Shown in pieces: positions 5,443 through 41,098 of a stretch of DNA of 64,000 nt. The stretch's first letter is position 1. Each line of letters opens with the position of its first letter. A program made the translations under genes and the position numbers. This DNA comes from an uncultured Verrucomicrobiae bacterium (GTDB lineage: Bacteria > Verrucomicrobiota > Verrucomicrobiia > Chthoniobacterales > Chthoniobacteraceae): positions 480,001 through 544,000 of the forward strand of contig CAVYKI010000003.1 in the NCBI GenBank assembly GCA_963769025.1, written 5' to 3'. The notes below the pieces were generated by a model. The model saw only the letters and a list, made by a program, of their open reading frames with translations. It was not told the origin of the DNA and made no database searches.

Positions 5443-6279
5443 ATGAAATCCTTCCTCGCAATTCTCGCACTCGTCCCCTGCCTCGCGTTTGCACAGTCGC
5501 CCGACCTCACGCTCGCGCGCGACAAGAACTGGCTCGTCATCCAGGGCCCGCATCTGCCGAAAGGCGAGATCCGCATCAACTACCTCGAAGCGTATTGTCG
5601 CGCGAACTCGACGGCCGCGGACTGGCACGACACGACGCTCGGCCACACGACGGAACTCGTCTCGCTCAGCGACGACAAGAAGACGATGAAGCTGCGCTGT
5701 ACGGTGAAGGACGGCGTGGTGGTCGATCACACGATCACCGCGGGCACCGACGACGTGACTTTCGCCCTCACCGCGCACAATCCGAGCTCGCAGGAGTCCG
5801 GCGCGCACTGGGCGCAGCCGTGCATCCGGCTCGGCGACTTCACCGGCTACGACAACAAGGGCAAGGACCTCGATGACTACCTGCCGAAGTGCTTCGTCTT
5901 CCTCGACGGCAAGCTCGCGCGCATGCCCGACATCCGGCCGTGGGCCAAGGAGGCGCGCTACATTCCCGGCCAGGTCTGGTGCCCGAAGGACGTGCCGCGC
6001 ACCGACGTGAACCCGCGCCCGCTCAGCCCGCTGGTGCCGAGCAACGGCCTCATCGGCTGCTTCAGCGGCGATGAAAAACAGATCTTCGCCGTCGCCTTTG
6101 AGCCGTATCAGGAGCTGTTCCAAGGCGTCGCACGCTGCCTGCATTCCGACTTCCGCATCGGCGGCCTGAAGCCGGGCGAGACGAAACAGATCAAAGGCAA
6201 AATCTACATCGTTCAGAACGATGTCCCCGCGCTGCTGGCGCGGTACGCAAAGGATTTTCCGGAGCAGCAGCGGAAGTAA
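5443..6279 (+). CDS. Secreted hypothetical protein
   Basis: ATG 5443 MKSFLAILALVPCLAFAQ signal peptide in the frame of ORF 4339..6279; typical GC3-rich codon usage; YLEAYCR and CLHSDFRIGGL segments. Confidence 0.75.
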   Translation: MKSFLAILALVPCLAFAQSPDLTLARDKNWLVIQGPHLPKGEIRINYLEAYCRANSTAADWHDTTLGHTTELVSLSDDKKTMKLRCTVKDGVVVDHTITAGTDDVTFALTAHNPSSQESGAHWAQPCIRLGDFTGYDNKGKDLDDYLPKCFVFLDGKLARMPDIRPWAKEARYIPGQVWCPKDVPRTDVNPRPLSPLVPSNGLIGCFSGDEKQIFAVAFEPYQELFQGVARCLHSDFRIGGLKPGETKQIKGKIYIVQNDVPALLARYAKDFPEQQRK

Positions 6280-6405
6280 TTTTTGATGCTCGCCCCATCC
6301 ATTCATCCTCGCCCTGCCGGACGGAAGCCCTGCGGGGTGGACGCCGACATTCAACGCTTTCTCCGCCATCGAACTTTTTTTCACCCCCGCACCACGCCCC
6401 GATTT

Positions 6406-8470
6406 ATGATGTCCGTCCTTCGCCATTTCGTCCTCCTCGTCGGAGGGCTGTTCGCCCTTTCATCATCGGCCCGGGCGGCAACTGCGGCGGACGTGATCGT
6501 CTATGGCGCGACACCCGGCGGATTTTGCGCAGCCATCGCCGCCGCGCGGGAAGGAGCCTCGGTGATCCTGCTGGAGCCGAGCCCTCACGTCGGCGGCGTG
6601 AACACCGGTGGATTGTGCTTCAGCGACTCGAATCAGACGGTGCGCAGCACGGTGCTGGGGTTGTTTGAGGAATGGCATCTGCGCATCGAGAAGGACTACG
6701 GGCAGCGCGGCGTGAAGCTGCCTTATCAGGTCGGCGTGAAAGATCACACGCACTGGACTTACGAACCGCATGTGGCGGCGCGCGTGACGACGGCGATGCT
6801 CGAGGAGGCTGGCGTGAAGGTGCTGACGAAGCGCGTGCTGGAGAAGGTGACGAAGGACGGCACGCGCATCACGAAACTCACGACGGGCGACGGCGAGTTC
6901 ACGGCGAAGGTGTTCATCGACGGCACCTACGAGGGCGATCTGATGGCGGCGGCGGGAGTGAGCTGGACGATTGGCCGCGAGGGGCGCGCGGAGTTTGGCG
7001 AGTCGCTCGCCGGGAAGCAGTATCCGAAGGCGAAAATGGCGATCTCGGGCCTTGCTGCCGATGGCAAGCCGCTGCCGCTGATCACGACGACCGACGCCGG
7101 TCCGGAGGAGGCGGGCGACAAGAATGTGATGGTTTACAGCTTCCGGCTGGTCCTGACCACGAATCCCGAAAACCGCGTGCCGATGCCGAAGCCCGCGAAC
7201 TACGACCCCGCGCGTTTTGAAGTCGTTCGCAGGCATCTGCAAAATGGCGGACGCGGTGTGGGGATCGACCTCTATCCCCTGCCGGGCGGCAAGTTCGACG
7301 GGAACAATTCGATTGGCGGACAATTTTCCCTCGGCCTCGTCGGTGCCTGCAATGGCTGGAGCGAAGCGGATGCAGCGGGGCGGCAGCGCATCTGGGAAGC
7401 GCACAAGCAATACACCCTCGAGTTCCTCCACTTTCTCACCACCGATCCGGCCGTGCCGGAAGCCGATCGGAGGAAGTATGCCGCACTCGGCCTCTGCAGG
7501 GATGAGTTTCCGGAGCACGGCCACTTTTCACCCGCGCTCTATGTCCGCGAAGGCCGGCGCATGAAGGGCATGTATGTGGTCACCCAGAACGACATCTTGA
7601 AGACGCCGGAAAAGGACGACGCGATCGCGGTTTCATCGTTTCCCATCGACTCGCACGACTGCCAGCGCGTCGGAACCGCGGATAGCGTCATCGCCGAGGG
7701 CACGATCATGCCGGTGCGCATGGCGGGCCGGCGGCATGGGTATCCCTACCACATTCCCTATCGCGCCATTCTGCCGAGATCGGAGGAGTGCTCGAATCTC
7801 CTCGTGCCCGTCGCCCTGTCCTGCACGCATGTCGCCATCAGCTCGATCCGTGTCGAGCCGACGTGGATGATTCTCGGCCAGAGCGCGGGCGTCGCAGCGG
7901 CGCTGAGCGCGAAACAGAACGTCGGGGTGCAAGCGCTGCCGTATCCCGCCCTGCGCGAGCGCCTGCTGGCGCAAAAACAGGTGCTCGAACTCCCCGTGCT
8001 GACCACTTTGCCACCGCAGCCGAAGGGCGCGATGAACATCGATCCCGCCAGGCTGCCGGGCATCGTTCTGGATGACACGCAGGCCAGAGCTGAAAGGCCC
8101 GTGGAGCCGTTCCTCCAACTTCAAACCTCACATCGGCGACGGATATATCCACGACGACAAGCGGGGCGACGGCCAGTCCTCCGCGACGTTTCGCTTCAAG
8201 GTCCCGAAGACCGGCCGCTACGACCTGCGCATCGCCTACTCGCCCCACGAGACGCGCGCCAAGAAGGTGCCGCTCACGATCGTCAGCGGCGCTCAGCGCA
8301 CGGCCCTCACGTTTGACAAAACGCAGCCGCTTCCACAGGGCGACGCCTTTCGCAGCGCAGGCATCGTCCAGCTCACGGCCGACGTGGAAACCACGATCAC
8401 GCTGAGCAACGAAGGCACGGAAGGCTTCGTCATCGTGGATGCGATTCAGTTGATCGAAGCAAAGGAATGA
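6406..8470 (+). CDS. Secreted FAD-dependent oxidoreductase (FAD_oxidored family) with C-terminal beta-sandwich (golvesin/xanthan-lyase-CBD-like) module; frameshift near 8090
   Basis: DVIVYGATPGG, FIDGTYEGDL, YVREGRRM, IPYRAILP, SSIRVEPTWMILGQSAG; tail in ORF 8072..8470 (GDGYIHDD...GRYDLRIAY...GFVIVDAIQL). Confidence 0.8.
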
Positions 8471-8555
8471 CACAGCCTCGCCCAACCTCGCACGTGACCT
8501 CCGGCATCCGAAGCCAGGTGACCCGAGACCGAAACCTCCCCCTCACCACACATCC

Positions 8556-9997
8556 ATGAACTCCCATCCTTCGTCTCCCCTCCCGCGTCGCCATTTTCTC
8601 CGCCAGGCCGTGGGTGGCGCGACGGCGGCCGCGCTCGCTCCATCCCTCGCGCGGGCCGCGGATGCGCCGGCTTCGGCTCCCGGAAAGTTCGGCGAACCGG
8701 CGCGGGAGATTCCGCTGAACGATGACGCGGATGTGATCGTCTGCGGCGCGGGTCCCGCGGGGGTCTCCGCGGCCATCACGGCGGCGCGGGCGGGCGCGAA
8801 GGTGCGGCTCTTCGAGTGGCGCGGCTGCCTCGGCGGCGTGTGGACGGCGGGCCTGCTCGGCTACCTGCTCGATTTCGACAAGCCGGGCTTTGCCAGGGAG
8901 CTGGTCGGCCGGACTGGACGAGCGCGGCATCCGGCGCGGCACAAACCGCTCCAGCGTCTGCTACGAACCGGAGGGCATGAAGCTGCTGCTCGAGGATCTG
9001 TGCGTCGGAGGCGGGCGTGAAGTTCCAGTTTCACACGCGCGTCGCCGCCGCGTATCGCGACGGGCGGCGGCTCACGACCATCGTCACGGAGTCAAAGTCC
9101 GGGCGGCAGGCGTGGCGCGCGCCGGTGTTCATCGACACGACCGGCGACGGCGACCTCGGCGCGCTCGCCGGATGCGCCTGGGAGATCGGCGAGGCGAAGG
9201 ACTGCCCGTGCCAGCCGATGTCGCTCAACGCGCTGCTCGTCGTGAAGGACGCGGAGGCGCTGCGCGATTTCATCCGCATGGGCAAACCCGGTCCCGGAGA
9301 CGCGTCGAACGGGCAGAAGAAGAACCGCATCCGCGAGGAGATCGAGCGCACCGGCCACTTCCCCTCCTACAGCAAGCCCACGCTCTGGCAGGTGCGCGAC
9401 AACCTGATCCTCGCCATGATGAACCACGAATACGGCATCAAGCCCTTCGACGCCGCGCAGATCACCGAGGCCACGGTGCGCGCACGCGCGGAGATGAACC
9501 ACATGATCGACGGCCTGCGCAAACTCGGCGGACCGTGGGAGGGCATCCAGATCGTCGCCACCGCCGAGCAGATCGGCGTGCGCGATGGCCGCCGCATCGC
9601 GGGCCGCTACACCGTGAGCAAGGACGACGTGACCACCGGCGCGCGGCACGAGGACGGCGTGGTGCGCCCGACCTTCCCCGTCGACGTCCACGCCATGAGC
9701 GCCGAGCAAAACAGGACTTCGGCGTATTCAGACCAAGGCCTCAAGGTGAAGCCCTACGACATCCCGCTGCGCGCGCTCATCGCGAAGGACGTGGACGGCC
9801 TCATGATGGCCGGCCGCTGCATCAGCGGCGACTTCATCGCGCACTCCAGCTACCGCGTGACCGGCAACGCCGTCGCCATGGGCGAAGCCGCGGGCATCGT
9901 CAGCGCGCTCGCCGCACAGCGGAAAGCGCTCCCGCATGAAATTCCATGGGCCGACGCCGTCGCGGTCTTGGAAAAAGTCCGCGCCGGGCGCGCTTGA
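8556..9997 (+). CDS. Tat-exported FAD-dependent oxidoreductase; frameshifts near 8910 and 9015
   Basis: PRRHFL Tat motif, DVIVCGAGPAG, FIDTTGDGDL, YDIPLRALI, MAGRCISG, SSYRVTG. Confidence 0.8.
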
Positions 9998-10218
9998 GCT
10001 TCGCTGCGCAACGTGCGCGAACCCCGCTCGACCGCGTGTCTCGCATGATTCCGAAAATGCAGAGCCCATGAACGCGTTTCGCCGTTCTGCTGCCCGCTCC
10101 GCAGGCGCCGCTGCTCTCGCCGGAGTTTGCGGTGATGGAATGAGCGGCACTGCGCTTTTCAGCAGTTCCGCACCGTGGGGAAACTCTCCTTTTCCTGAAT
10201 CCCCGATCCCCTTGAACC

Positions 10219-12911
10219 ATGAAACTGATCCAACTCCTCCCGCTCTTCGCAGCCCTGCTCCAAGGCATCGGCGCCGCTGAAATCACGAGCCACGAGCCGC
10301 AGCGTCCGCTGCCTGTCGCAAGCAGTCGCCCGCTCCCCAAAGGCGAGATCCATGTCATCGACAACGCGCGCGGCGACGACGCGAACGCAGGCACCGAGGC
10401 CGCTCCGTGGCGCACGCTCGATCACGCCATCGCACGGATGCCGTCAGGGGGGACGCTCTGCCTGCGGGGTGGAGTGTACTACTCGCACAGTGTCATCCGC
10501 ACGAGCGCCAGCCGGGAGAAGCCGCTGATCATCCGCTCATGGCCCGGCGAACTCGCTGTGCTCGACGGCGGTGAAGCGGAGTTTGCATCGAGCCCGGAAA
10601 GCGCGTGGGAACCCCATGCCGACGGGGTGCCGGGTGAGTTTCGCTCGACGAAAGCCTATCCGCTCGCGCGCACGGAAGGCGAGCAGGATGGCGATGGCGA
10701 CGTGCTCGCGATGGGACGCTTCATTGACTCGATGATCCCGCTCCACGGGGCGAGGTTTCACGGCGATCTGCAATCGGACAATCCGTGGTGGAACATCAGT
10801 TCGAAGTCAGGCGGGCAGAGCTTCGTGTATTGCGGGCCCGCGGTGTGGCAGGATGGGAAGACGGGGCGCATCCACTGCCGGCTCGCGCACACGAAACTGC
10901 CCGGGCTCGGCGCGGACAACTACACAGGAATCACCGACGCGCGGAAGACGCCGCTGTGCATCGCCACGGTCGCCGCGGGGCCGGCGCTCACGCTCGCAAG
11001 GGGCGCGGCACATCGTGCTCCAGGATCTCGTGGTGCGCGGCAGCGCCACGGCCACCTTGCTCATCGAGGAATGCGCAGACATCACGCTCGACGGCGTGAC
11101 CATCTACGGCGGCGGAAAGGCGATGCAGGTCCGCGACACCGCCGGACTGCGCATGATCCACAGCGCGTGCCGCGGGCTTTCCGCGCCGTGGATGTATCGC
11201 GGCGCGCTGAAATATCGCAGCGTCGAGGCGCGGCTGCTTTCCGCGACATCCTGGATGCCGACGGGCGTGGACAATCGCGACTTCGAGATCGCGTACTGCG
11301 AGTTCACCGACTGCGAGGATGGCGTCTTCATCGGCAGCGTGCGCGGCGTGCGTTTCCATCACAGCCTCGTCGAAAATATGACGGACGACGGCGTTTTTGT
11401 CACGGCCACGAGCGGCTACGACGGCCACGTCGCGGGCGGCGATGTGCGCCTTTGGCAAAACCGCTTCTCGCGCTGCCTGACGACGCTTGCGTTTGGCGTC
11501 GGGCATGGGCGGCAGATCGCTCTGCCGGATCGCGTGCAGACCGGCGATGGAGTGTGGATCACGCGCAACGTTTTCGATTTCCGCCGCCCGGTCCACTACC
11601 ACTGGCCCAAGGATGCCGACGACAAACAGGAGCCGTATTATCGGGGACGCTTCGGCGGCGACCACGGCAGCCCGGCGTGGGAGCCGATGTGGATTTATCA
11701 CAACACGATCGTCGGCGGGCATGTGGAGCGCGCGGATTTCGGCAATCCCGGCCTCGGCGCGCGGCATGGGCAAAGGCACGACCCGCCATGTGCTGAACAA
11801 CATCCTCTGCACCGATGTCGGCGAGCCCGGAACCACGGTGCCGAAGGACAACGCGCGCTTCCACACAGGAGGAAACGTGCTGTGGTCATTCGATCCGGGC
11901 AATGCCGACGCGGCGGCATGGAAGGCAAAGCTCCAGCGCTCATCGCCGGACGCCGCGAAGACGAACCAGATCACGGACCCAGGCTTTCAGAGCTATTCGA
12001 CGGAATGGCGGAAGGACGTGGATCTGCGGGCGAGCGGTCCCGCGGTGGATGCAGGCGTCGCCATTCCAGCCGATTGGTTCGATCCCATCCGCTCGAAAGA
12101 AATCGGCGCTGTCCCCAAGGGCTCGCAGCCGTGGCGCATTGGCATTCACGGGCGGCTCGATGCCTTCGGACGCAAGGCCGAAAACGCGCCGCCGCCCGCT
12201 GCCTTTGCGTGGGCTTTCCCCGACGACCATCCGGCGCACGGCCCGCGGGCGGATGCACCTCGCGCGACGAGCATCCGCGGCTATCCCGCGTTCGACGCGC
12301 CGATCGTCGAATACCTTCTCCGCCGCCGGGGCGCGATCGTGGAAGTCCACGACCGCGAGCACGTCGCGCTCACTGCGGCCAACCTCGCGAAACAGAAACT
12401 CCTGATCTACGACGGCAGTCTCACGCGGGCGAAAATTCAGCCGGACACGCTTTCGGAATCCGACATCGCCGCGCTGGAGCCGTGGCTGCAAGCGGGCGGC
12501 ACGCTCCTCCTGTGCAGCCAGCGGGCGGACATTTTCAAAAGCGAACCCGGTCGCGCATTCCTCGAACGCCATCTCGGAACGCCGCCAAGATCGAAACCCG
12601 CGAGCCCCACGATCGCGCAGCCCAAGCATCCCTGGCTCGCGCATCTCAACTCGCCCACGCCATCGTGGCTCGCACCAAAGTCATCCCCGCTCGCGGCCAC
12701 GACCGGCGAAGCCATCATCTCGAACGGGCCGAACTTTTCCCAACTGTGGCAGACGAAGGCGGGACGCGGACGCATCATCTACATCGGCTGGAGCGTGGGC
12801 GGACAACTCACCGACAACCGCCGGGGCTCCGCCGTCGAAACCGACGCCGCGATGATCGAGCAGGTCCGGATCATTGGTGCCGTGCTCGATGATGTTCTGA
12901 AGCACAAGTAG
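10219..12911 (+). CDS. Large secreted parallel beta-helix (DUF1565/pectin-lyase-like) protein; frameshifts near 11000 and 11760
   Basis: Signal peptide; GDDANAGTEAAPWRTLDHA..TLCLRGGVY..LIIRSWPGE; beta-helix-like repeats in ORF 10853; SGPAVDAG and C-terminal domain in ORF 11487..12911. Confidence 0.65.
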
Positions 12912-29536: not shown

Positions 29537-29612
29537 AAAACGCCTGACTGTGGAGCGCTCCCCGAGGCTCCGCCCGCTTGCTTCGCCGTTCCATCGCGTT
29601 ACAAACGCCCGC

Positions 29613-30606
29613 ATGAAAATTCTCCTCCCGCTACTGGCCCTGCCGGCTTTCGCGTTTGGCGTTGATGCGCCGGAATTCAAAGGCTCCATCGAGCGATTCG
29701 ACGCCGCGTTCGACAAGCTCGTCGCGCCCGGCACAAAGATCGAGAGGCTCGCCGGCGACTTCAAGTGGTCCGAGGGGCCGGTGTGGCTCGGTGACGGCAT
29801 CGTCTTTTCCGACGTGCCGATGAACATCGCTTACCGCTGGAAGGATGGCATGGCGAACGCCGAGGTGTTTCTCCAACCGAGCGGCGCGACCGGTGAACCC
29901 GCGAGCGCCCGTCCGCAGGGCAGCAACGGACTCGCGCGCGACGCGAAGGGACAACTGATCCTCTGCCAGCACGGCGACCGCCGCGTGGCGCGGATGACTG
30001 CGCCGGGGACGTTTGAGACCATCGCGGACAAATTCGACGGCAAGCGCTTCATCGTCGCCGAACGACCTCGCGATCCGGAAGAACGGCGACATCTACTTCA
30101 CCGATCCGCCGTACGGACTGAACGGGCTGAATGCTTCGCCGATGAAGGAGATTCCGTTCAACGGCGTCTATCGCGTGACACCCGACGGCAAAGTGACGCT
30201 GCTCACGAAGGATCTCACCTTTCCAAACGGCATCGCCTTTTCGCCCGACGAGAAGATCCTCTACGTGGCGATCAGCGATCCGAAACACACCCGCGTCGCG
30301 GCATTCGACGTGAAGGATGACGGCACGATTGCAAACGAGCGGACGTTTTTCGACGCGGAGGCGGTGAAGAAACCCGGCCTCAAGGGTGCGTGCGACGGCC
30401 TGAAAACGGACGCGGACGGCAACGTCTGGACCACCGGTCCCGGCGGCGTGCTCGTGGTTTCGCCCGAGGGAAAGCTGCTCGGGCGCATCAATACCGGACA
30501 GCCGACGGCGAACTGCAACTGGGGCGGCGACGGCTCCACGCTCTACATCACGGCGAACATGTTCCTCGTCCGCGTGAAGACGCTGACGAAGGGCGCGGGC
30601 TGGTAA
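29613..30606 (+). CDS. Secreted SMP-30/gluconolactonase family protein; frameshift near 30050
   Basis: WSEGPVW, FSDVP, GSNGL, SPNDL, YFTDPPYG, PNGIAFSPDEK, DGLKTDADGN. Confidence 0.9.
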
Positions 30607-30633: not shown

Positions 30634-31260
30634 ATGAAAACACTGCTCACCGCCCTCCTGGGCCTCACCGCAAACTGCCTCGCGGCAACGACCGTCGAGG
30701 TCTCCGTGAAATTCGCCGACGTACCGGCAGGCACCGAGGTGCCCTCGAAGCCGGAATTGCTGGCGAAGACGAAGGGCATCGACGTGCTCAGTACGCCGCG
30801 CGTCACCACACTCCCCGGAAAAAGCGCGACCATCGAAGTGGTTCAGGAACTTGCCGCGCCCGACGGTTCGGCGACCCCGCTCGGCGTGACGCTGACGATC
30901 AAGCCGTCGCTCACGGAGAAGGGCTCGATCGCGTTCAGCGGCAAGGCGACCGACCGCTTCAAGCACGGCCAGCGCGCCGGGGAATCGCTGTCTGTCCTCT
31001 CATGCGTCGCGCGCGAGATTTACTTCAAAGGCGTGACGACGAGCGGCTCCACGGTCGTCCTCAAGGGTGGCCCCACCACGGCCTCCACGACGAAGAAGGA
31101 CGACACGACCGTGGTGAAAAACCGCGATCTGGTGATCTACCTGACGTTCAAGAAAATCACGTCCGAGCCGGTGAAGAAAAAACCGACCCCCACGACGAAG
31201 TCCACGAAGTCCGCAAAACCGTCCACATCGGCGACGAAGAAGAAGTCCTCGAAGAAGTAG
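30634..31260 (+). CDS. Secreted hypothetical protein with secretin-like segment and Lys/Thr-rich tail
   Basis: Signal peptide; DVLSTPRVTTLPGKSATIEV, GVTLTIKP, RDLVIYLT. Confidence 0.65.
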   Translation: MKTLLTALLGLTANCLAATTVEVSVKFADVPAGTEVPSKPELLAKTKGIDVLSTPRVTTLPGKSATIEVVQELAAPDGSATPLGVTLTIKPSLTEKGSIAFSGKATDRFKHGQRAGESLSVLSCVAREIYFKGVTTSGSTVVLKGGPTTASTTKKDDTTVVKNRDLVIYLTFKKITSEPVKKKPTPTTKSTKSAKPSTSATKKKSSKK

Positions 31261-33287: not shown

Positions 33288-33488
33288 CTGCGCCGAGAAT
33301 AGTCCCGTGCTCCGCCTACGCGAGGCCGAACTCCGCGGCAAATCCTCAAATCATCCCGTCGCAGGGCTCAGTCCCGCAGCCAGACTGTCGTTTCGGGTAG
33401 GATTGCGCGTGGGATTGGGATTAAGAAGGAGCGCACCGCCCGCCCGCCGTTTCCTCATCACGCCCGACCTTCACCGCACCACCCCGCC

Positions 33489-34309
33489 ATGAATCTTCCC
33501 GTCGTCCTCACCATCGCCGGCTCCGACAACAGCGCAGGCGCGGGCGCGCAGGCGGATCTCAAGACCATCAGCGCGCTCGGCGGATACGGCGTCACCGCCA
33601 TCACCTGCGTCGTCGCCGAGGTGCCGGGAAAAGTCAGCGCCGTGCATGCCATCCCGCCCGCGATTCGTCGCCGAGCAGATCCGCCTGCTCTTCGGTGCGT
33701 TCCCCATCGGTGCGATCAAGACCGGCATGCTCTACTCGACCGGAATCATCGACACCGTCGCCGACACGCTCGATCAGTTCCGCGCTCAGAATCCGGAGTC
33801 CAAAATCCCGCTCATCGTGGATCCCGTCATGGTCGCCACGAGCGGCGACCCGCTGCTGCTCCCCGATGCCGTCGCGCTCTACCGCGAGCGCCTCTTTCCC
33901 GCCGCAACCCTCGTCACGCCAAATCTCGACGAAGTCCGCACGCTCACCGGCCGCGACCATCACCAGCATCGCCGAAATGCGCGAAGCCGGCCTCGAACTC
34001 GCCGCACGTCACGGCACCGCATTCCTCGTCAAAGGCGGCCACCTGCGCGAAGCCGTCGCCACCGACCTCCTCGTACTGCCCGACGGCACCGTCCACACCT
34101 TCGAGGCCCCATTCGTCCCCGGCGTGAACACCCACGGCACCGGCTGCACCTACAGCGCCGCCATCGCCACCGGCCTCGCACGCGGACTCGACCTCCCCGC
34201 CGCAGTCGGCGAGGCGAAAAAGTTCGTCACCGCCGCCATTAAGAATTTTCTCCGCTGGGAGCGGGACGGCCGCACCACCGACGCGCTGCATCACTTTGCG
34301 AAAGGCTGA
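33489..34309 (+). CDS. thiD: Hydroxymethylpyrimidine/phosphomethylpyrimidine kinase; frameshifts near 33660 and 33950
   Basis: LTIAGSDNSAGAGAQADLKT, IKTGML, VDPVMVATSG, TPNLDE, VKGGH, NTHGTGCTYSAAI. Confidence 0.92.
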
Positions 34310-34322
34310 AAAGACTCCCCCC

Positions 34323-35828
34323 ATGAACCTCACCTGCACCACCGAATCCCTCCTCAAGCGTACCACCTCGCGCTGCCCCGTGTGCCATGCTTCGGTGCCC
34401 GCCGAGGTTTGGAAGGTGAGCGAGGGCTGTGGCGGGGATTCCGCCGCGCCGGCCGCGCGCGTCTTTCTCCGCCGCACCTGCCCCGAGCATGGAAAGGCCG
34501 AGGCGTGCATCGCGAGCGACGCGCGCTTCTACTGGCTCGCCCAGGGCGACCCGAAGAACCAGTGCTGTGGCGGCACCTGCCACGCCGCCGAGGGCGACGC
34601 CACCGGCACGCTCGGCCGCAACGCCTCCGCCTCTCAACCCTCAACCCTCAACTCTCAACCAGCCGCCGAGCGGCTCAGCACCTGCCTCGCGCTGATCGAG
34701 ATCGTGAATTCCTGCAACCTCGCCTGCCCCACGTGCTACGCGGATTCGCCCATGGGCGCCGGTGGCACTGTGGACGCCGTGCCGCTCGCCGACGTGCAGC
34801 GGCGCATCCAGGGCGTGATTGACCGCAAGGGCCGCATCGAAATCCTCCAGCTCTCCGGCGGCGAGCCGACGCTGCATCCGCAGTTCTTCGAACTGCTCGC
34901 GTGGCTGCACGCGCACCCCGGCATTGACTACGTGCTGCTGAACACCAACGGCGTCCGCATCGCGAACGACGACGCATTCCTCGACTCGCTCGGGAAGACA
35001 TTCCGCGCGGGAAAATTCCAGCTCTACCTGCAATTCGACGGCGTGCAGGAAGCCGCGCAGCGCGCCCTCCGCGGCGGCGATCTGCGCGAGATGCGCAAGC
35101 GCGCCATCGAGCGCTGCGGCACGCTGAACATCCCCATCACCCTCGCGATGACGGTGACGCCGGAAAACCTCCCGCACCTGTGGGACACGGTGGAGTTCGG
35201 CCTCGGCTTCGACCACGTGCGCGGCGTGAGCTTCCAGCCGATGTTCACCGAGCGGACGCGACTCCGAGCCTCTCAACTCGTCCAAGGCGCGCATCAACCG
35301 GCTCAACTCGATCTCAACACCGCCGACGTCATCCTCGCCCTCGTCGCCCAGTCCGCAGTCCCGCCTCCGCTTCGAGGACTTCACCCCGCTGCCCTGCGGC
35401 GATCCGAACTGCGCGACCATCGGCTACCTTTTGAAAATCGGCGGCACCGGCGGGCAGACGCGCTCGATCAGCGACTTCGTGGACTTCCGCCAGGTGCAGG
35501 ATTTCCTCCGCGACAAAGTCCGCTACACCCCCGAAGACCTCGCCCGCTGCGGCTGCGAAAGCGAACCCCTCGGCGAACTGCTGCACGAGCTGGAGACGGG
35601 AATGCGGAGTGCGGAACGCGGAGCGGGGATTGATGGCGCTGCCTCGGATTCCGCATTCCGCACTCCGCACTCCGCACTCGCCGCTCGGCCTTCCGCCTTT
35701 TCATCAAGCCCTTCATGGACGCGTGGACGTGGGACGAAGACCGCATCGACCGCTGCTGCACGCACGTCATCCGCCCGGATGGGAAGCTGGATTCGTTCTG
35801 CCGATACTACAGCACACAGCGCGGATGA
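34323..35828 (+). CDS. Radical SAM enzyme of the Tes/MJ0619 (tetraether lipid synthase-like) family; frameshifts near 35360 and 35690
   Basis: N-terminal TTSRCPVC...LRRTCPEHG; CNLACPTC; SGGEPTLHP; NTNG; YLQFDG; GVSFQP; PLPCGDPNC; C-terminal KPFMDAWTWDEDRIDRCCTHVIRPDGKLDSFCRYY, TGA at 35826-35828. Confidence 0.82.
34632..34659 (+). repeat. Four tandem heptamers (YCTCAAC) within the radical SAM gene
   Basis: TCTCAAC CCTCAAC CCTCAAC TCTCAAC; reverse complement of the run at 46279-46299. Confidence 0.8.
35599..35678. repeat. Inverted heptamer element (TCCGCAY family) within the radical SAM gene
   Basis: GGAATGC GGAGTGC GGAACGC ... TTCCGCA TTCCGCA CTCCGCA CTCCGCA. Confidence 0.8.
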
Positions 35829-35940
35829 AAAAGCTCAGGCCAACTCTACTCGGAGCGGCGCAACGACGCGTAGCGTCCGCCCCAATAATAGCCCTGAGCC
35901 CCGACCGCATGGGAAGCTGGATTCATTCTGCCGATACCAC
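35779..35940 (+). repeat. 32-bp direct repeat of the radical SAM 3' coding end (35779-35810 and 35909-35940)
   Basis: ATGGGAAGCTGGATTCGTTCTGCCGATACTAC vs ATGGGAAGCTGGATTCATTCTGCCGATACCAC, two mismatches, 130 bp apart. Confidence 0.9.
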
Positions 35941-35954
35941 TCGCGTCCAAGTTT

Positions 35955-36269
35955 ATGAAAGGGAAATTTCCGAACGTCAGATGGTTGACGCTCTTTTTTC
36001 TACCTGCGCTGATCGGCGTTCTCATTATGCTCTCAAGCCCAAAAGTCCGCGCTGCGACTATCTGTCTGTGGCTGCTTTTGTCGGCCTGCTACTTTTTCGT
36101 GTTGTTGCTTGTCTATTGCGTAAGGAACGAGCAACGCGGGATTGAACTCGCGGTCTATTCCGTTGTGGGGACTTTGTCTTTGTTGTCCGCGAACTTTTTC
36201 GTGTGCCTCACGCTCTACTACGCAGGCTGCGCGTGTGCGGCGTCGGGGATCGGCCGGATCGCTCCTTGA
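35955..36269 (+). CDS. Small 3-TM membrane protein, AT-richer than its neighbours, with C-terminal YAGC
   Basis: Three hydrophobic segments; ATGA overlap at the start and TTGA overlap with the next gene; visibly more T-rich sequence. Confidence 0.7.
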   Translation: MKGKFPNVRWLTLFFLPALIGVLIMLSSPKVRAATICLWLLLSACYFFVLLLVYCVRNEQRGIELAVYSVVGTLSLLSANFFVCLTLYYAGCACAASGIGRIAP

Positions 36270-36986
36270 AATCCTCCCCTTACAGCTGGCTGCTTCTCGT
36301 CGCCATCGCCGCGAGCCTTTTCACATGGACGCGGCTCGCGCGACGCGATCCCCGGCTGGTGATGATTTACGTCGCGGCGCTGCTCAGCGCGTTCATCGGG
36401 GCGAAGCTCGTCTATGTGCTCGCCGAGGGCTGGCTCGACTGGCCGCTGCCCGACCGCTGGCTCCGGCTCGCGACGGGCAAATCCGTGCTCGGCGCGCTGC
36501 TCGGCGGCTACGCCGGGGTGGAACTCGCGAAGCACGCGCTCGGCCACCGCGCCGCCACGGGCGATCTGTTCGCGCTGGTCGCGCCGCTCGGCATCGGGAT
36601 CGGCAGGATCGGCTGCCTGCTGCACGGCTGCTGCCTCGGCGAGCGCATGCGCGCCCGCGTGGTGGACGCTTCGCGATGCGCAGGGCGTCGCGCGCTGGCC
36701 CGCGGTGCCGTTGGAGCTGGCGTTCAACATCGCGGCCATCGTGATTTTCCTCCTCCTGCGCCGGCGCGGCTTGAAGGGAGTCCGCGACGGCCTGCGCGGC
36801 CAGCACTTCCACCTCTACCTCATCGCCTACGGCGCATTCCGTTTCGCGCACGAATGGATGCGCGCGACGCCGAAGATCGCCGGCGTGATCTCCGGCTACC
36901 AGCTAGCCGCGCTCGCGTGCGTGGCGCTCGGCGTGTGGGGATTCCGCCGACGCGCGCGGCTTGAGCGTGCAGCCGCCGCCCCGTAG
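36266..36986 (+). CDS. Prolipoprotein diacylglyceryl transferase (Lgt)-like protein, non-canonical; frameshift near 36645
   Basis: FIGAKLVYV, GKSVLGALLGG, GDLFA, IGRIGCLLHGCCLG, WPAVPLE, YGAFRFAHEWMR, SGYQ. Confidence 0.8.
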
Positions 36987-36997
36987 CGTCCGCGCGA

Positions 36998-37762
36998 ATG
37001 GAGCTCCGGAAATTCAACGTCCTCGGCGTCGCGATGAGCGCGATGAATCTCGACATCGCCACGCAGGCCGTGCTCGAGGCATGCGCGGCGCGGCGCAAGG
37101 GCTACGTGTGCGTGACGGGCGTCCACGGCATCACCGAGGCGCAGTCGGACGGTGCATTCCGCCGCATTTTGAACGGTGCATTCCTCAACACCTGCGACGG
37201 CATGCCGCTCGTGTGGGAGGGCCGGCGCGCGCATGGCGCGTGGGTGGATCGCGTGTATGGGCCCGACCTCATGCTCCGCATCATGGACGCGACGCGCGAC
37301 GGAAAGCTCACGCACTACTTCTACGGCGGCGCGCCCGGCGTGGCCAACCAGCTCAAGGCTGCGATGGAGCCGCGCTTCCCCGGCGTGCGAATCCTCGGCA
37401 CGCATTGCCCGCCCTTTCGTCCGCTCGATGAAACGGAGCGCGCCGCACTCGCCGCGGAGATCGCGGAGAAAAAACCCGACCTGTTCTGGGTCGGGCTCAG
37501 CACGCCGAAGCAGGAGCGCTTCATGGCCGAGTTCCTCCCGCTGCTGGACACGACGGTGATGCTCGGCGTCGGCGCGGCGTTCGACTTCCACACGGGCCGC
37601 ATGAAGGAGGCCCCGCGCTGGATGATGCGCTGCGGCCTGCAATGGCTCCACCGCCTGTGCAGCGATCCGAAGCGACTGTGGCGGCGCTACGGCATCATCG
37701 TGCCGAGCTACCTCTTCCGCATTTTCCTCCAGCGCACCGGGCTGAAAAAATACCCGCTCTGA
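36998..37762 (+). CDS. WecB/TagA/CpsF family glycosyltransferase
   Basis: CDGMPLVW, RVYGPDLM, WVGLSTPKQE, GVGAAFDF, GLQWLHRL..DPKRLWRRY. Confidence 0.92.
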   Translation: MELRKFNVLGVAMSAMNLDIATQAVLEACAARRKGYVCVTGVHGITEAQSDGAFRRILNGAFLNTCDGMPLVWEGRRAHGAWVDRVYGPDLMLRIMDATRDGKLTHYFYGGAPGVANQLKAAMEPRFPGVRILGTHCPPFRPLDETERAALAAEIAEKKPDLFWVGLSTPKQERFMAEFLPLLDTTVMLGVGAAFDFHTGRMKEAPRWMMRCGLQWLHRLCSDPKRLWRRYGIIVPSYLFRIFLQRTGLKKYPL

Positions 37763-37849
37763 GTTGCGCAGGCACTCTCCGCTTGCGCACGCGGGCGGAT
37801 TGCCGAGAGTTGCGGCCCTTTTCCAGACCCCGAACCCTTTCCAGACAGC

Positions 37850-38857
37850 ATGAACAAAGTCCTCGTTTGCGGCGCCGGCGGATTCATCGGCGGACACCTC
37901 GTGGCAGACCTCCGCCGCCAGGGCGTGAAGCACATCCGCGCCGTGGACCACAAGCCGGTCGGGCAGTGGTATCAGCGCTTCGACGACGTGGAAAATCTCC
38001 GGCTCGACCTGCAGGAAAAGGACGCCTGCGAGACGGCGGTGAAAGGCTGCGACTGGGTCTACAACCTCGCCGCGGACATGGGCGGAATGGGCTTCATCGA
38101 GCTGAACAAGGGCCTGTGCATGCTGAGCGTGCTCATCAACACGCACCTGCTCATGGCTGCGCGCAAGTGCGGCGGCGTCGAGCGGTTTTTCTACGCGTCG
38201 AGCGCGTGCGTTTATAACGCGGCGAAGCAGACCAACCCGAACATTACCGCGCTCGCCGAAGAGGACGCTTACCCGGCGATGCCCGAGGACGGCTACGGCT
38301 GGGAGAAGCTTTTCAGCGAGCGCATGTGCCGCCACTTTCGCGAGGACTTCGGCATCCAGACGCGCATCGCCCGCTACCACAATGTCTATGGCCCGAACGG
38401 CACCTACGACGGCGGACGCGAGAAGGCGCCCGCCGCAGTCTGCCGCAAGGTGATCGCCGCGAAGCTGGACGGGAAACACGAAATCGAAATCTGGGGCGAC
38501 GGGCAGCAGACGCGCTCGTTCATGTACATCGACGACTGCCTGCACGGCACGCAGATGCTCACGCGCTCGGATTTCATCGAGCCGATCAACATCGGCAGCT
38601 CGGAGAAAGTGAGCATCAACCAGCTCGTGGATCTCGTGGAGGAAATCGCGGGGATCAAACTTGAGCGCCGCTACAAGCTCGACGCGCCGAAGGGCGTCAA
38701 CGGACGGAACTCCGACAACACGCTGATCCAAAAAACATTCGGCTGGCAGCCGAACATCCGGCTGCGCGACGGCCTCGCAAAGACCTACGCATGGATCCAC
38801 GACGAGATGGTCTCCACGCGAAAGACCGGCCGCGCGAGCGTGGTGAACGTCGCGTAG
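37850..38857 (+). CDS. NAD-dependent epimerase, GDP-mannose 3,5-epimerase-like
   Basis: GAGGFIG, NLAADMGGMGFI, YASSACVY, PEDGYGWEKL, GGREKAPAAVCRK, GVNGRNSDN. Confidence 0.9.
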   Translation: MNKVLVCGAGGFIGGHLVADLRRQGVKHIRAVDHKPVGQWYQRFDDVENLRLDLQEKDACETAVKGCDWVYNLAADMGGMGFIELNKGLCMLSVLINTHLLMAARKCGGVERFFYASSACVYNAAKQTNPNITALAEEDAYPAMPEDGYGWEKLFSERMCRHFREDFGIQTRIARYHNVYGPNGTYDGGREKAPAAVCRKVIAAKLDGKHEIEIWGDGQQTRSFMYIDDCLHGTQMLTRSDFIEPINIGSSEKVSINQLVDLVEEIAGIKLERRYKLDAPKGVNGRNSDNTLIQKTFGWQPNIRLRDGLAKTYAWIHDEMVSTRKTGRASVVNVA

Positions 38858-38869
38858 CCGGCGACGGGA

Positions 38870-40244
38870 TCAGCGGACGAATTTTCCGGGATTCAGAATC
38901 CCCTTCGGGTCGAGCGCGGCCTTGAGCGCGGAGTGCGCGTCGCGACCGACCTTGTCCACGGCCTGCGACCACCATGGCTTCTTCGCGAGGCCGATGCCGT
39001 GCTCGCCGGTGATGACGCCGCCGATCTTCAGGATCCATGTGAAAAGCTCGTCGAGCGCGCGGTCCACCTTCGCCTTTACGCGGCGATCCCCGTGGTAGTT
39101 CGCGGCCATGATGTTCACGTGGATGTTTCCGTCGCCCGCGTGGCCGAAGCACGCGACCGGATAGCCGTATTTCTTCGCGAGGTGTTCGCCGAACTCGGCC
39201 AGCTCCACGAGCTTCCCGCGCGGGACGACGACATCCTCGTTGAGCTTCGTGAGCCCGGTTGCTTTGAGCGACGCGCTGTACGCGCGGCGCAGGCCCCAGA
39301 GCTTTTCGCATTCCTCCTCTCCGAATGCCGTGAGCACGCGGATCGTGTTGAGCTTGCGGAGCAGTTTCGCGAGCGCGGCGCACTCGCCTTTCACCGACTC
39401 CGCCTGGCCGTCGAGTTCGACCAGCACGAGCGACCTGCGCGCCGGGAGCGATCTCGCGGCCGAGAAATTCGCGCGCACTTTTCAACGTGAACGGGTCGGC
39501 GATCTCCATGGCGCACGGCAGGAAGCCCGCGGCGAAAATCCGCTGCACGGCATCCGCCGCCTCGCGGAAACTGCGGAAGCTCACGGCCAGCGTGGCGCGC
39601 GCGGGAGGATGCGGCAGCAGGCGCAGCGTCGCCTCCGTCACCACGCCGAGCAGCCCTTCGCTGCCGACGAACAGGCCCGCGAGATCGAAGCCCTGCTTGT
39701 TCTTGTGCGTGCGCCCGCCGCAGCGCAGCACGCGGCCGTCGGCGAGGACGACCTCGAGGCCGAGCACATAGTTGCGCGTCACGCCGTATTTCAGGCAGCG
39801 CGGCCCGCCGGCGTTCGTGGCGATATTGCCGCCGATGCTGCATTCCTTCAGCGACGCGGGATCGGGTGGATAGAAGAGCCCGACCTTGCGCACCTCCGCC
39901 TGAAGGTGGCCGGTGATCACGCCCGGCTGCACCACGGCGACGCCGTCGGAAAAATGGATCTCCTTGATGCGATTCATGCGCGCCACGCTCAGCGCGATGC
40001 CGCCGCGCACGGGCACGCAGCCGCCGACGTAGCCCACGCCGGAGCCGCGCGGCGTCACCGGGATGCCGTGGCGATTCGCGAAGCGCAGGGTTTTTTCCAC
40101 GTGCGCGCGCGTGCGCGCCAGCACCACGACGTCCGGATCCCGCGAGGCAAACCAGCGGTCAGCCGCATGCGCGGTGATCGTGGGCTTGTCGGTGAAGACA
40201 ACCCCGGGTCCCAGAATCCGAGCGAGCGAGGCTGCGGTGTTCAC
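38870..40244 (-). CDS. FAD-linked oxidase, GlcD/D-lactate dehydrogenase-like; frameshift near 39440
   Basis: YPPDPAS, IGGNIATNAGG, KYGVTR, GSEGLLG, FGHAGDGNIH, ITGEHGIG, DPKGILNPGK. Confidence 0.88.
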
Positions 40245-40378
40245 CGGGCGAAGGTGGTCACGGCCGTCGGCGAAGTTCCGCACGATGCCGATGAAATCGA
40301 CGGAAAACAGGAAACGCATGATGGACTTCTGATAACGCCGGCGATCAGCCGACGCAAGCTGCGGTCCGGTTGCGCCCG

Positions 40379-41098
40379 TCACCGCGGCGGGTTCGATGGC
40401 TTCAGCTCCTCCCCACCAAAGATGCGCCTGAGCACGTTTGGCTTGGGAGTTGGCGTCGGACGCGCCGCGCGACCGGCTGCGGGCTGGGAACGCCCGGCCG
40501 CAGGCGTACGGCCTGCAGCAGCAGTCCGGGACGAGGCGACGGATGCCGGCATTACCGAACTCAGGAATTCCGCCGAAGGCTCCTTTTCAAAGCCGTCGTG
40601 CGCCAGAATCTCGCCCTTGAGCGCGTGAATCGTCACGACGCCCAACTGGTCGCCAATGGGGTCCAGCACCGTCGCCCGCCAGACGGGAACATTCGCAGCC
40701 AGATCCTTCGCCATCTCGAAATTGAGTGACCCGACCTTGGCGCCGTTCGCCGCGGCAAAAAGCGCCGCGACTCGCGCGACGACGTCGGAATCGATCTTCA
40801 CCGCATCATTTCCCACGACATCAGCCGCGCTCACGGACTCGGCGAATTGCGACAGCTCGCGCGAAGCCACGACTCTGCCCCCGGCAACGACAAACTCACG
40901 CATCCCGTCCGCCAACACGGGATCATGCACGATGAAATACCACCGCTCCGGAGTGGCCACGGCGTCCCGGCCCTCGATACGGGCCAGCCGCTTCGCGGCG
41001 CCCTGGGGGATCAATTTGAGCGCACCGAGCGCAGTGCCATCGCCCTGGGCGCTGGCGACGGAAACAAATGCGAGAAAGAGAAAGCCACGGAAATTCAC
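40379..41098 (-). CDS. Secreted hypothetical protein
   Basis: GTG start with signal peptide FRGFLFLAFVSVASAQ in the C-terminal part of ORF 40379..42874; low-complexity tail. Confidence 0.65.
   Translation of the reverse strand: MNFRGFLFLAFVSVASAQGDGTALGALKLIPQGAAKRLARIEGRDAVATPERWYFIVHDPVLADGMREFVVAGGRVVASRELSQFAESVSAADVVGNDAVKIDSDVVARVAALFAAANGAKVGSLNFEMAKDLAANVPVWRATVLDPIGDQLGVVTIHALKGEILAHDGFEKEPSAEFLSSVMPASVASSRTAAAGRTPAAGRSQPAAGRAARPTPTPKPNVLRRIFGGEELKPSNPPR

Follow-up and report, generated by a model that had tools for sequence, protein, structure and literature searches.

A conserved Lgt–radical SAM–Cys-tail module in Verrucomicrobia suggests a so far unknown lipid–protein modification

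Positions 34323-36986 of a 64,000-nucleotide stretch of DNA from an uncultured Verrucomicrobiae bacterium (contig CAVYKI010000003.1; the whole stretch is referred to below as the window) encode a radical S-adenosylmethionine enzyme (rSAM), a small membrane protein that carries a cysteine at the end of its last helix (a member of what will be called the Cys-tail family) and a paralogue of the lipoprotein enzyme Lgt. The conservation of this trio in Verrucomicrobia suggests a lipid–protein modification that is so far unknown. The three gene families are found together in related genomes, elsewhere the two enzymes are joined by fusion (in proteins that include some named as Planctomycetes), the cysteine of the small proteins and a cysteine triad of the Lgt paralogue are conserved, the folds are those expected, and the predicted topology puts the cysteine where Lgt acts. 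It is therefore very probable that they constitute one functional module with the Cys-tail proteins as dedicated partners, and from these observations we infer that the cysteine is lipidated, that the rSAM acts on a lipid, and what the product may be.

The features of the region are the following.

34323..35828, plus strand: rSAM gene of the MJ0619/GDGT-MAS (HMPTM) superfamily (PF23545, PF04055), with ATG at 34323 and TGA at 35826-35828, read in frames 0, 1 and 0 owing to indels (tblastn)
About 34353-34517, plus strand: N-terminal rubredoxin-like CxxC...CxxH site of the rSAM (Pfam Zn_ribbon_HMPTM, PF23545)
About 34695-35198, plus strand: rSAM core with CNLACPTC (Pfam Radical_SAM, PF04055)
35593..35686, no strand: TCCGCAY heptads arranged as an imperfect palindrome, placed in the variable linker of the rSAM (repeat search)
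35691-35825, plus strand: C-terminal FMD...CC.H...FC block of the rSAM
35901..35940, plus strand: second copy of the last 40 nucleotides (nt) of the rSAM coding sequence (repeat search)
35955..36269, plus strand: 104-residue membrane protein, member of the Cys-tail family (match to a profile hidden Markov model, HMM)
36266..36986, plus strand: Lgt paralogue with a TTG start and one frame break (Pfam LGT on two pieces)
36602-36640, plus strand: Cys-triad motif of the Lgt paralogue, GRIGCLLHGCCLG

These genes are tightly packed in a common orientation within a 65% G+C stretch, and all of them lie where an earlier reading of the letters alone (the sequence-only reading) had placed them. The rSAM motifs listed in that reading were also recovered without exception: CPVC...CPEH, CNLACPTC, QLYLQFDG and FIKPFMDAWTWDEDRIDRCCTHVIRPDGKLDSFCRYY. 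Its description of the small protein holds for the length of 104 residues, for the three transmembrane (TM) segments and for the stop codon, a TGA (36267-36269) that overlaps the TTG at 36266 opening the Lgt-like frame, whose first residues (MKSSPYSW...) pair with those of the Chthoniobacter flavus protein (MRSTAYGW...). The claim that the protein ends in LYYAGCAC does not hold: the last of its three hydrophobic helices ends in YAGC (C92, codon 36228-36230), and 12 more residues follow that cysteine. The residues from the first Cys onwards are ACAASGIGRIAP, and the 12-residue tail ends in GRIAP.

The linkage between the two enzymes was studied by scanning 185,579 species genomes, which yielded 256 rSAM relatives; the best 80 of these 256 were used as loci, most of them Verrucomicrobiota by label and one of them from the isolate C. 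flavus Ellin428. Of the 69 loci that extend 1000 nt or more past the rSAM gene, 66 have an Lgt-like gene directly downstream of it on the same strand; the figure is 56 of 59 when at least 2500 nt are available, and the start-to-stop gap ranges from -4 to about 1800 nt. Several metagenome-assembled genome records holding a locus of the verrucomicrobial type (among L006-L080) are labelled Bifidobacteriaceae, Klebsiella, Akkermansia, Saccharimonadales, Sulfotelmatobacter or Binatia, labels that probably reflect binning or labelling errors.

The same association has been fixed by translational fusion. A search of 1.84 billion proteins provided the best 150 representatives, from which 85 full-length proteins were scanned, and two of them (P0154 and P0238) join Lgt, the zinc ribbon and the rSAM in a single chain. 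When the Lgt part of P0154 was used as a seed, 72 of 94 matches carried LGT, Zn_ribbon_HMPTM and Radical_SAM together. These three-domain proteins are about 660-710 residues long, hold the Lgt part at the N-terminus and, in the four cases with a source name, come from Planctomycetes, Thermoguttaceae or Pirellulales. The conserved linkage proposed in the sequence-only reading is thus borne out both by the loci and by 72 fused clusters. A cysteine triad (R-x-[GA]-C-x4-CC) is present in 72 of 73 fusions, and the fused Lgt domain and the paralogue of C. flavus share 37% identity (E 2e-25). The topology of E. coli Lgt places its C-terminal end in the cytoplasm, and the seven helices of an AlphaFold2 model of the C. 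flavus paralogue agree with it; if this topology holds, the N-terminal position of Lgt in the fusions would set the rSAM at the cytoplasmic end. The alignment of the planctomycete fusions also shows an extra Cys-rich stretch (W-C-C-P-x-C-R-P) at the junction that follows the last Lgt helix and leads to the rubredoxin-like site; this stretch is missing in the separate Verrucomicrobiota paralogues. One further candidate, P0276, was rejected as an rSAM–Lgt fusion, given that its middle part reads as an out-of-frame translation, as happens in the window.

The third element of the module was recognised in the gaps between the two enzymes, which contain open reading frames (ORFs) of about 100 residues with three TM helices, ending in ...F-x-G-C plus a short tail. 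An HMM built from these gap ORFs hits the window protein at E 2e-17 (3.6e-10 after one iteration). Although the set of ORFs was balanced between strands (4370 plus, 4353 minus), the 121 ORFs matched by the HMM are all on the strand of the rSAM, 108 of them hold [GAS]C in the last 20 residues, and 118 of the 120 matches within loci fall no more than 1.5 kb from the rSAM gene. A scan with the motif only, defined as GC preceded by 18 uncharged hydrophobic residues and followed by 2-20 residues, gave an equally specific picture: of the 1207 ORFs on the rSAM strand and no more than 1.5 kb away, 134 were hit, compared with 0 of the 5042 other ORFs (0/1340 on the opposite strand nearby, 0/1912 on the same strand far away and 0/1790 on the opposite strand far away). 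Among loci with full flanks, 43 of 52 have a copy detected by HMM plus motif, and in 8 of the remaining 9 a copy was found by eye, the HMM having missed copies in 8 loci. Each locus holds from 0 to 5 detected copies, located upstream of the rSAM as often as between both enzymes. Therefore, the expected link of a small Cys-bearing gene with the enzyme pair exists, while the idea of one fixed small gene has to be replaced by that of a variable family.

This family appears to be unnamed in the resources searched. No Pfam or NCBIfam family matched the small proteins, tblastn with the window protein gave one weak match in the 80 loci, and a Cys-tail protein of C. flavus retrieved only unnamed clusters from the ESM Atlas. 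Throughout the alignment of Cys-tail proteins (A3) there is no variation at the Cys, at a Pro of TM1 or at the initiator Met, and the Gly preceding the Cys and an Asn in TM3 reach at least 90%. Some members hold an N-terminal zinc ribbon and others have 8 TM helices, the last helix and the tail being the part common to all of them, and certain tail types recur, such as ...GRIAP and ...G[YF]xLN[FM]H. A logo of 109 tails shows Phe at -3 in 46 of them, Gly at -1 in 94 (at this position G/A/S was a rule of selection) and either Ser or Ala at +2. The uncharged residues leading up to the Cys number 22 in the median, and the segment that precedes them has a mean net charge of +1.5, so that the succession of n-region, h-region, small residue and Cys is kept. 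The motif is not part of an N-terminal signal peptide but comes after the final helix of proteins with 2-8 TM helices, where 2-20 residues remain to the C-terminus. Lys plus Arg, counted in 21 three-TM members, amount to 58 at the N-terminus, 19 in the first loop, 50 in the second and 11 in the tail, which indicates an N-in, C-out topology; the Cys is therefore predicted to sit where the Cys of a lipobox meets Lgt. In other words, the Cys of the small protein to which the sequence-only reading had drawn attention is invariant in a family that travels with both enzymes, and is assigned to the outer face by the positive-inside rule.

The Lgt paralogue is recognised by Pfam LGT (PF01790) in the two pieces of the window gene (49.7 and 35.1 bits) and in full-length relatives (94 bits). 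In contrast, three full-length paralogues score 47.3, 44.5 and 41.9 bits against TIGR00544, with a cut-off of 118.9. The AlphaFold2 model of the C. flavus relative (mean predicted local distance difference test score, pLDDT, 91.4; predicted template modelling score, pTM, 0.87) has seven TM helices, and its sole significant match in the PDB according to Foldseek is 5azb (E 9.6e-8, TMq 0.63). Identity to E. coli Lgt is 23% in the Foldseek alignment, a separate comparison with E. coli Lgt gives E 6e-8, and the head domain of that enzyme is reduced to about 25 residues in the model. Across 46 aligned sequences, the equivalents of Y26, D129, G142, R143, G145, G154, Y235, R239, E243 and R246 are invariant, N146, E151 and L152 are replaced by three invariant Cys within the motif GR[IV]GC..xGCCLG, which the model places at the predicted outer-face end of TM4, and H103 is replaced by Leu. 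Six residues have been described as required in E. coli Lgt, namely Y26, H103, R143, N146, G154 and R239 (PMC13251419). Four of them are kept as the invariant columns Y6, R114, G125 and R186, and the position of N146 is occupied by the invariant C117. The same source reports N146C in the Lgt of Leptospira interrogans and in MSMEG_5408, and a disulfide between N146C and a nearby Cys has been proposed for the former (PMC13251419); because of these precedents, the Cys triad is unusual but not unprecedented. The gene is thus rightly described as a non-canonical paralogue, on account of its score below the TIGR00544 cut-off and its changed invariant residues.

These data bear on the simplest explanation, according to which the Lgt-like gene would be the usual lgt, its adjacency to an rSAM gene would be meaningless and the small ORF would be a chance occurrence. 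Membership in Pfam LGT, retention of most conserved residues and the occurrence of N146C in accepted Lgt proteins (PMC13251419) are what this explanation would predict, while the fusion of both genes in 72 protein clusters, scores of 42-47 bits against a cut-off of 118.9 and the strand- and place-specific enrichment of the motif all contradict it. In addition, another verrucomicrobium, Methylacidiphilum fumariolicum, is reported to have an Lgt 39% identical to that of E. coli (E 4e-54; PMC10260701), compared with E 6e-8 for the paralogue, a difference between sequences which argues that the paralogue may be an extra copy. Ordinary housekeeping is consequently very hard to credit, and incidental linkage is largely refuted.

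The fullest locus is that of C. flavus Ellin428 (L032), a cultured isolate that is not a pathogen. It is a compact operon spanning 5943-11459, in which the genes for the rSAM, the Lgt paralogue and a PF00144 hydrolase are accompanied by four Cys-tail genes, with several starts and stops that overlap or abut:

5943-6146, 6672-6977, 8461-8766 and 8771-9634: Cys-tail genes, the last one encoding 287 residues with 8 TM helices
About 7001-8464: rSAM gene
9635-10348: Lgt paralogue
10422-11459: PF00144 gene

A gene for a PF00144 serine hydrolase (beta-lactamase fold) directly follows the Lgt paralogue in L005, L010, L028, L032, L040, L045, L048 and L060, and in nine clusters (P0271-P0275 and P0277-P0280) this domain is fused to the C-terminus of the paralogue after an extra hydrophobic segment. 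The window does not hold PF00144.

Regarding the rSAM, the window protein matches Zn_ribbon_HMPTM (PF23545) with 50.6 bits and Radical_SAM (PF04055) with 69.3 bits, and the best solved relative, as identified with its relative P0056 as a query, is GDGT-MAS (PDB 7tol, E 1.2e-38). This match spans the rubredoxin-like site, the core and the C-terminal block, and the CPVC...CPEH of the window protein aligns with C9X2C12...C33X2H36 of 7tol. Both Pfam and 7tol therefore agree with the sequence-only reading in assigning the enzyme to the MJ0619/GDGT-MAS superfamily with the motif layout of Tes. Membership in the Tes family itself was not upheld, an outcome that the sequence-only reading had named among those that would count against it. 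Against the Tes model (NCBIfam NF045702, cut-off 450), the N-terminal piece from the window obtained 113.6 bits and eight full-length relatives 140-160, and none of the 85 full-length representatives reached the cut-off, the highest value being 417. Scores were higher with the TrsS model (NCBIfam NF045646, cut-off 490), namely 163 bits for the window piece and 194-227 for the full-length relatives, and 16 of the 85 representatives passed. In a FastTree phylogeny of 88 rows, with root unknown and with no protein passing the Tes cut-off included, those 16 proteins scoring at least 490 on TrsS form one clade (support 99). A second clade (100) unites the eight Verrucomicrobiota relatives; it belongs to a 27-row group (98) that lies apart from TrsS and also contains the Lgt-fused P0154. 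Hence the tree gives these Verrucomicrobiota proteins a clade of their own and does not make them TrsS either.

The residues of this clade depart from those of the solved enzyme in a defined way. The FMD...RCC.H...FC block is kept, with Met439 facing an invariant Lys (chain offset 20) and a 2-residue gap adjoining. About 15 residues upstream of the position of the [Fe4S4]N ligands of GDGT-MAS there is a CCGGxxC that is invariant (20 of 20 relatives) and may stand in for the missing ligands. Concerning the true TrsS proteins, they are fused to enzymes of the DVU_1551, DVU_1553 and DVU_1556 families or to DUF5714, not to Lgt; P0229, P0247, P0256 and P0262 are fusions of this kind, with a DVU_1551 NTP transferase, DVU_1556 methyltransferase, DVU_1553 AMP-dependent ligase and DUF5714. 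This context is a different one, likewise uncharacterised, for a sister family.

On these grounds, the account that we favour is a three-part modification module of the inner membrane in which the Cys-tail proteins would be substrates. Their last TM helix resembles a lipoprotein signal peptide in its design, with positive charge first, some 22 uncharged residues next, then F-x-G-C and only 2-20 residues more. The Lgt paralogue, which retains the residues binding the phosphate of phosphatidylglycerol, would act at the outer face of this membrane and join the tail Cys to a glyceryl-lipid. The cytoplasmic rSAM, which would be docked on the cytoplasmic C-terminus of the paralogue or fused to it, would in turn carry out radical chemistry on the hydrocarbon tails of the donor or of the product lipid. 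The model for this last step is GDGT-MAS, which has been reported to bind lipids and to abstract a hydrogen from the terminal carbon of a lipid (PMC9433317), and to proceed through a carbon-sulfur(cluster) intermediate to the formation of a C-C bond (PMC9433317, PMC13459092). This specific chemistry is put forward as a tentative possibility. Taken overall, as a blend of the strong expectation of a module and the tentative chemistry, the favoured account stands a little short of an even chance. A more elaborate version, which we regard as decidedly unlikely, is that the module makes a membrane-spanning protein anchor, in which the Lgt paralogue would transfer a diacylglyceryl group from an outer-leaflet phospholipid to the tail Cys, and the rSAM, docked or fused underneath the paralogue, would join the acyl ends of that group to the tails of an inner-leaflet lipid; if that were true, the protein, or a short lipopeptide cleaved from it, would be covalently tied to a bolaform lipid across the inner membrane.

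Several points weigh against the favoured account, and they concern its three components. As for the tails, a strict lipobox ([LVI][ASTVI][GAS]C) is found in only 16 of 109, and a relaxed one in 75 of 109. Moreover, the loci most closely related to the window, L001 and L009, hold small proteins without G-C, that of L001 ending in YVLCSNTRF. As for the Lgt paralogue, two of the six residues required in E. coli are changed (H103 to Leu and N146 to Cys). The rSAM, in turn, falls outside the Tes equivalog, so that a lipid-tail chemistry is assigned to it by analogy; the phmmer alignment with 7tol shows no Cys in its clade at the [Fe4S4]N ligand site of GDGT-MAS (C73, C77 and C80, which act together with a His); and TrsS is the closest named family, yet its context differs. 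The sample is also narrow, since the best 80 of the 256 loci have rSAM identities of at least 58% and represent one clade, and even there L049, L056 and L059 have no adjacent Lgt-like gene but unrelated genes downstream. Finally, with the rSAM in the cytoplasm and the Cys predicted to be periplasmic, a direct reaction between them seems unlikely and a lipid go-between would be needed.

A different role for the same genes is suggested by the rapid turnover of the small gene. The rSAM cores of the window and L001 share about 95% DNA identity, and their small genes are unrelated. Across 35830-36280 of the window, the single DNA similarity with L001 (8581-8617 in that locus) is a 37-40-nt piece of the rSAM 3' end. 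This 3' end is present twice in the window (35771-35810 and 35901-35940), in copies that are 90% identical and 130 nt apart, the second of which has a frame of its own, closed by a TGA that shares bases with the small ORF's ATG. The G+C content at third codon positions (GC3) of the small ORF is 0.68, the top value of its frames, compared with 0.83-0.91 in the neighbours. Because of the lack of DNA similarity in the small-gene region, the duplicated 3' end and the low GC3, the small gene looks like a cassette brought in by recombination between conserved flanks.

Such behaviour recalls the precursors of peptides that are made on the ribosome and modified after translation (RiPPs). In a RiPP-like lipopeptide pathway, the rSAM would modify the peptide, the Lgt paralogue would lipidate the Cys of the Cys-tail precursors, whose three TM helices would serve as a leader and whose C-terminus would be the core, and cleavage before that Cys by signal peptidase II or another hydrolase would release a diacylglyceryl lipopeptide of 3-21 residues. 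The 0-5 copies detected per locus, some of them in tandem, the turnover just described with its duplicated rSAM 3' end and low GC3, the recurring tail types and the Gly at -1 and Ser/Ala at +2, which suit signal peptidase II sites, would fit this pathway, as would the PF00144 hydrolase that follows the Lgt-like gene in 8 loci and is fused to it in 9 of the 10 longer Lgt-like proteins. Nevertheless, the rSAM is not of the SPASM/twitch peptide-maturase type and has a lipid-binding enzyme as its solved relative, the predicted topology places the tail outside the cytoplasm and thus apart from the rSAM, conservation spans the whole three-TM body (including the TM1 Pro and the TM3 Asn) instead of a leader-like stretch alone, and the loci share no conserved transporter or protease. 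For these reasons, a lipopeptide pathway is considered unlikely.

It could also be that the enzyme pair makes a modified membrane lipid with no protein product, for instance a glycerolipid that is coupled at its tails or spans the membrane, and that the Cys-tail proteins are subunits or scaffolds whose Cys forms a disulfide or a metal site with the triad of the Lgt paralogue. In fact, the Lgt–rSAM fusions need no third domain, and the triad, at the predicted outer-face end of TM4, adjoins the predicted site of the single invariant Cys of the partner; the disulfide suggested for N146C and a nearby Cys in the Lgt of L. interrogans (PMC13251419) and the discussion of Planctomycetota Tes homologues as possible genes for glycerol dialkyl glycerol tetraethers of the branched type (brGDGTs; PMC11868695) point in the same direction. 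Against this, a fixed subunit would be expected to vary less in sequence, copy number and added domains (zinc ribbons, 8-TM forms), and the order of n-region, h-region, small residue and Cys is precisely the architecture of Lgt substrates. We thus find a lipid-only role doubtful, and return to the account in which the Cys-tail proteins are substrates.

Comparison with known systems helps to delimit what is shared and what is distinctive in this module. With GDGT-MAS/Tes (MJ0619; 7tol, 7tom; NF045702), the rSAM has in common the domain order, the CX2C...CX2H site, the CX3CX2C core and the FMD...CC...C block. Unlike Tes, it reaches 140-160 bits against a cut-off of 450 and belongs to a separate clade (in a tree that held no protein passing that cut-off); unlike GDGT-MAS, it lacks Cys at the [Fe4S4]N site and has the invariant CCGGxxC upstream; and it is paired with or fused to an Lgt paralogue, a pairing that the available excerpts of the Tes papers do not mention. 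TrsS (NF045646) is the named family with the highest score, still below its cut-off of 490, but the rSAM clade is separate from it and has Lgt as a partner instead of DVU_1551/1553/1556 family proteins or DUF5714. Another bacterial rSAM, Mss from Thermotoga, has been described to couple fatty-acid tails (PMC13459092). It is an example of the chemistry that the rSAM of the window might do, the likeness being drawn from the description and not from sequence, and the excerpt mentions no Lgt partner for it.

With respect to Lgt from E. coli (5azb/5azc), the paralogue keeps the seven-TM fold and invariant equivalents of Y26, R143, G154, R239, Y235, E243 and R246, and differs in the change of H103 to Leu and of N146, E151 and L152 to Cys, in its reduced head domain, in scores below the NCBIfam cut-offs and in being fused or linked to an rSAM. 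Similarly, Cys-tail proteins resemble Lgt substrates in the charged segment, the hydrophobic helix and the small residue before the Cys, but are polytopic, with the motif at their C-terminal end and Phe at -3. Variable proteins that share a C-terminal helix and a motif and are encoded beside a membrane enzyme are also typical of the C-terminal sorting systems, that is, sortase/LPXTG, exosortase/PEP-CTERM and archaeosortase/PGF-CTERM. There, the helix comes after the motif and is cut away, whereas here the Cys follows the helix, and the enzymes are unrelated.

The state of the genes in the window deserves separate consideration, since both enzymes are interrupted. In the rSAM, frame 0 holds as far as 35357, frame 1 takes over between 35359 and about 35600, and frame 0 resumes at about 35690. 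Compared with L001, its closest relative, the window contains one additional base at 35358, and 35604-35690 is longer by a net +20 nt, so that the two shifts compensate each other. Another compensated pair is likely at 35247-35318, because the invariant SGR motif occurs only in frame 1 around 35250. The return from frame 1 to frame 0 takes place within the palindromic stretch 35593-35686, which is missing from L001 where the window has its net +20 nt; the TCCGCAY pattern occurs five times in the 64 kb, always within 35599-35680, compared with 0.11 expected. The Lgt-like gene passes from frame 2 to frame 0 at about 36640-36655. Frame breaks also affect unrelated neighbours: ThiD (33489-34306) is broken into three frames (Pfam profile positions 1-41, 44-136 and 137-238), and two frames each are occupied by an SGL gluconolactonase at 29586-30603 and, on the minus strand, by an FAD-linked oxidase at 38873-40382. 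On the other hand, a WecG-type glycosyltransferase (36998-37762) and an epimerase (37850-38857) are intact. Since unrelated neighbours carry them as well, the simplest reading is that the frame breaks are likely to be assembly errors.

If the breaks were real, the module would be dead in this genome and the locus would consist of pseudogenes. The 2 to 4 breaks in the rSAM and the one in the Lgt-like gene could be so interpreted, particularly as the indels are not at simple homopolymers (for instance, the single extra base at 35358). This interpretation is very unlikely considering that ThiD, the gluconolactonase and the oxidase, all within 12 kb, are broken too, that long open and conserved stretches remain with GC3 values of 0.84-0.91, that the shifts in the rSAM compensate (+1, then net +20) and that the contig, of 1.38 Mb, is presumably a long-read assembly.

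Searches for other elements in the DNA were negative. The whole window gave 0 matches against Rfam, and a promoter/terminator scan of 33300-38000 gave none exceeding shuffled sequence. Elsewhere in the window, at 30634-31260, there is an ORF of 208 residues with a signal-peptide-like start (MKTLLTALLGLTANC...) and a tail rich in Lys, Ser and Thr, which matches Pfam Secretin with 26.0 bits, below the cut-off of 27.5.

Lgt is seen as an essential enzyme that serves one purpose, N-terminal lipoprotein maturation. In the full-text literature searched, with subscription journals largely outside it, there was no published description of an Lgt–rSAM pair, and no specific NCBIfam model scores above its cut-off for either the rSAM clade or the Lgt clade. 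Similarly, the terms Lgt, diacylglyceryl and lipoprotein are absent from a 2026 review of lipid-modifying rSAM enzymes (PMC13459092). If confirmed, a Cys-triad paralogue acting together with C-terminally tagged proteins and an rSAM would represent a second, so far unexplored branch of bacterial protein lipidation; if the membrane-spanning anchor considered above were real, it would be a new protein-lipidation class in bacteria of the PVC group.

The consequences would also reach the field of membrane lipids. Homologues of Tes have been reported in 110 of 684 metagenome-assembled genomes of Planctomycetota in one survey (PMC11868695). Because the Lgt-fused proteins found here include some from Planctomycetes, the reading of that survey may change: some of the Planctomycetota Tes homologues, used as genomic markers for the producers of brGDGTs, which are palaeoclimate lipids, may be Lgt-fused enzymes accompanied by Cys-tail proteins. 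If the membrane-spanning anchor were real, many of the bacterial 'Tes homologues' in environmental surveys would not be tetraether-lipid genes.

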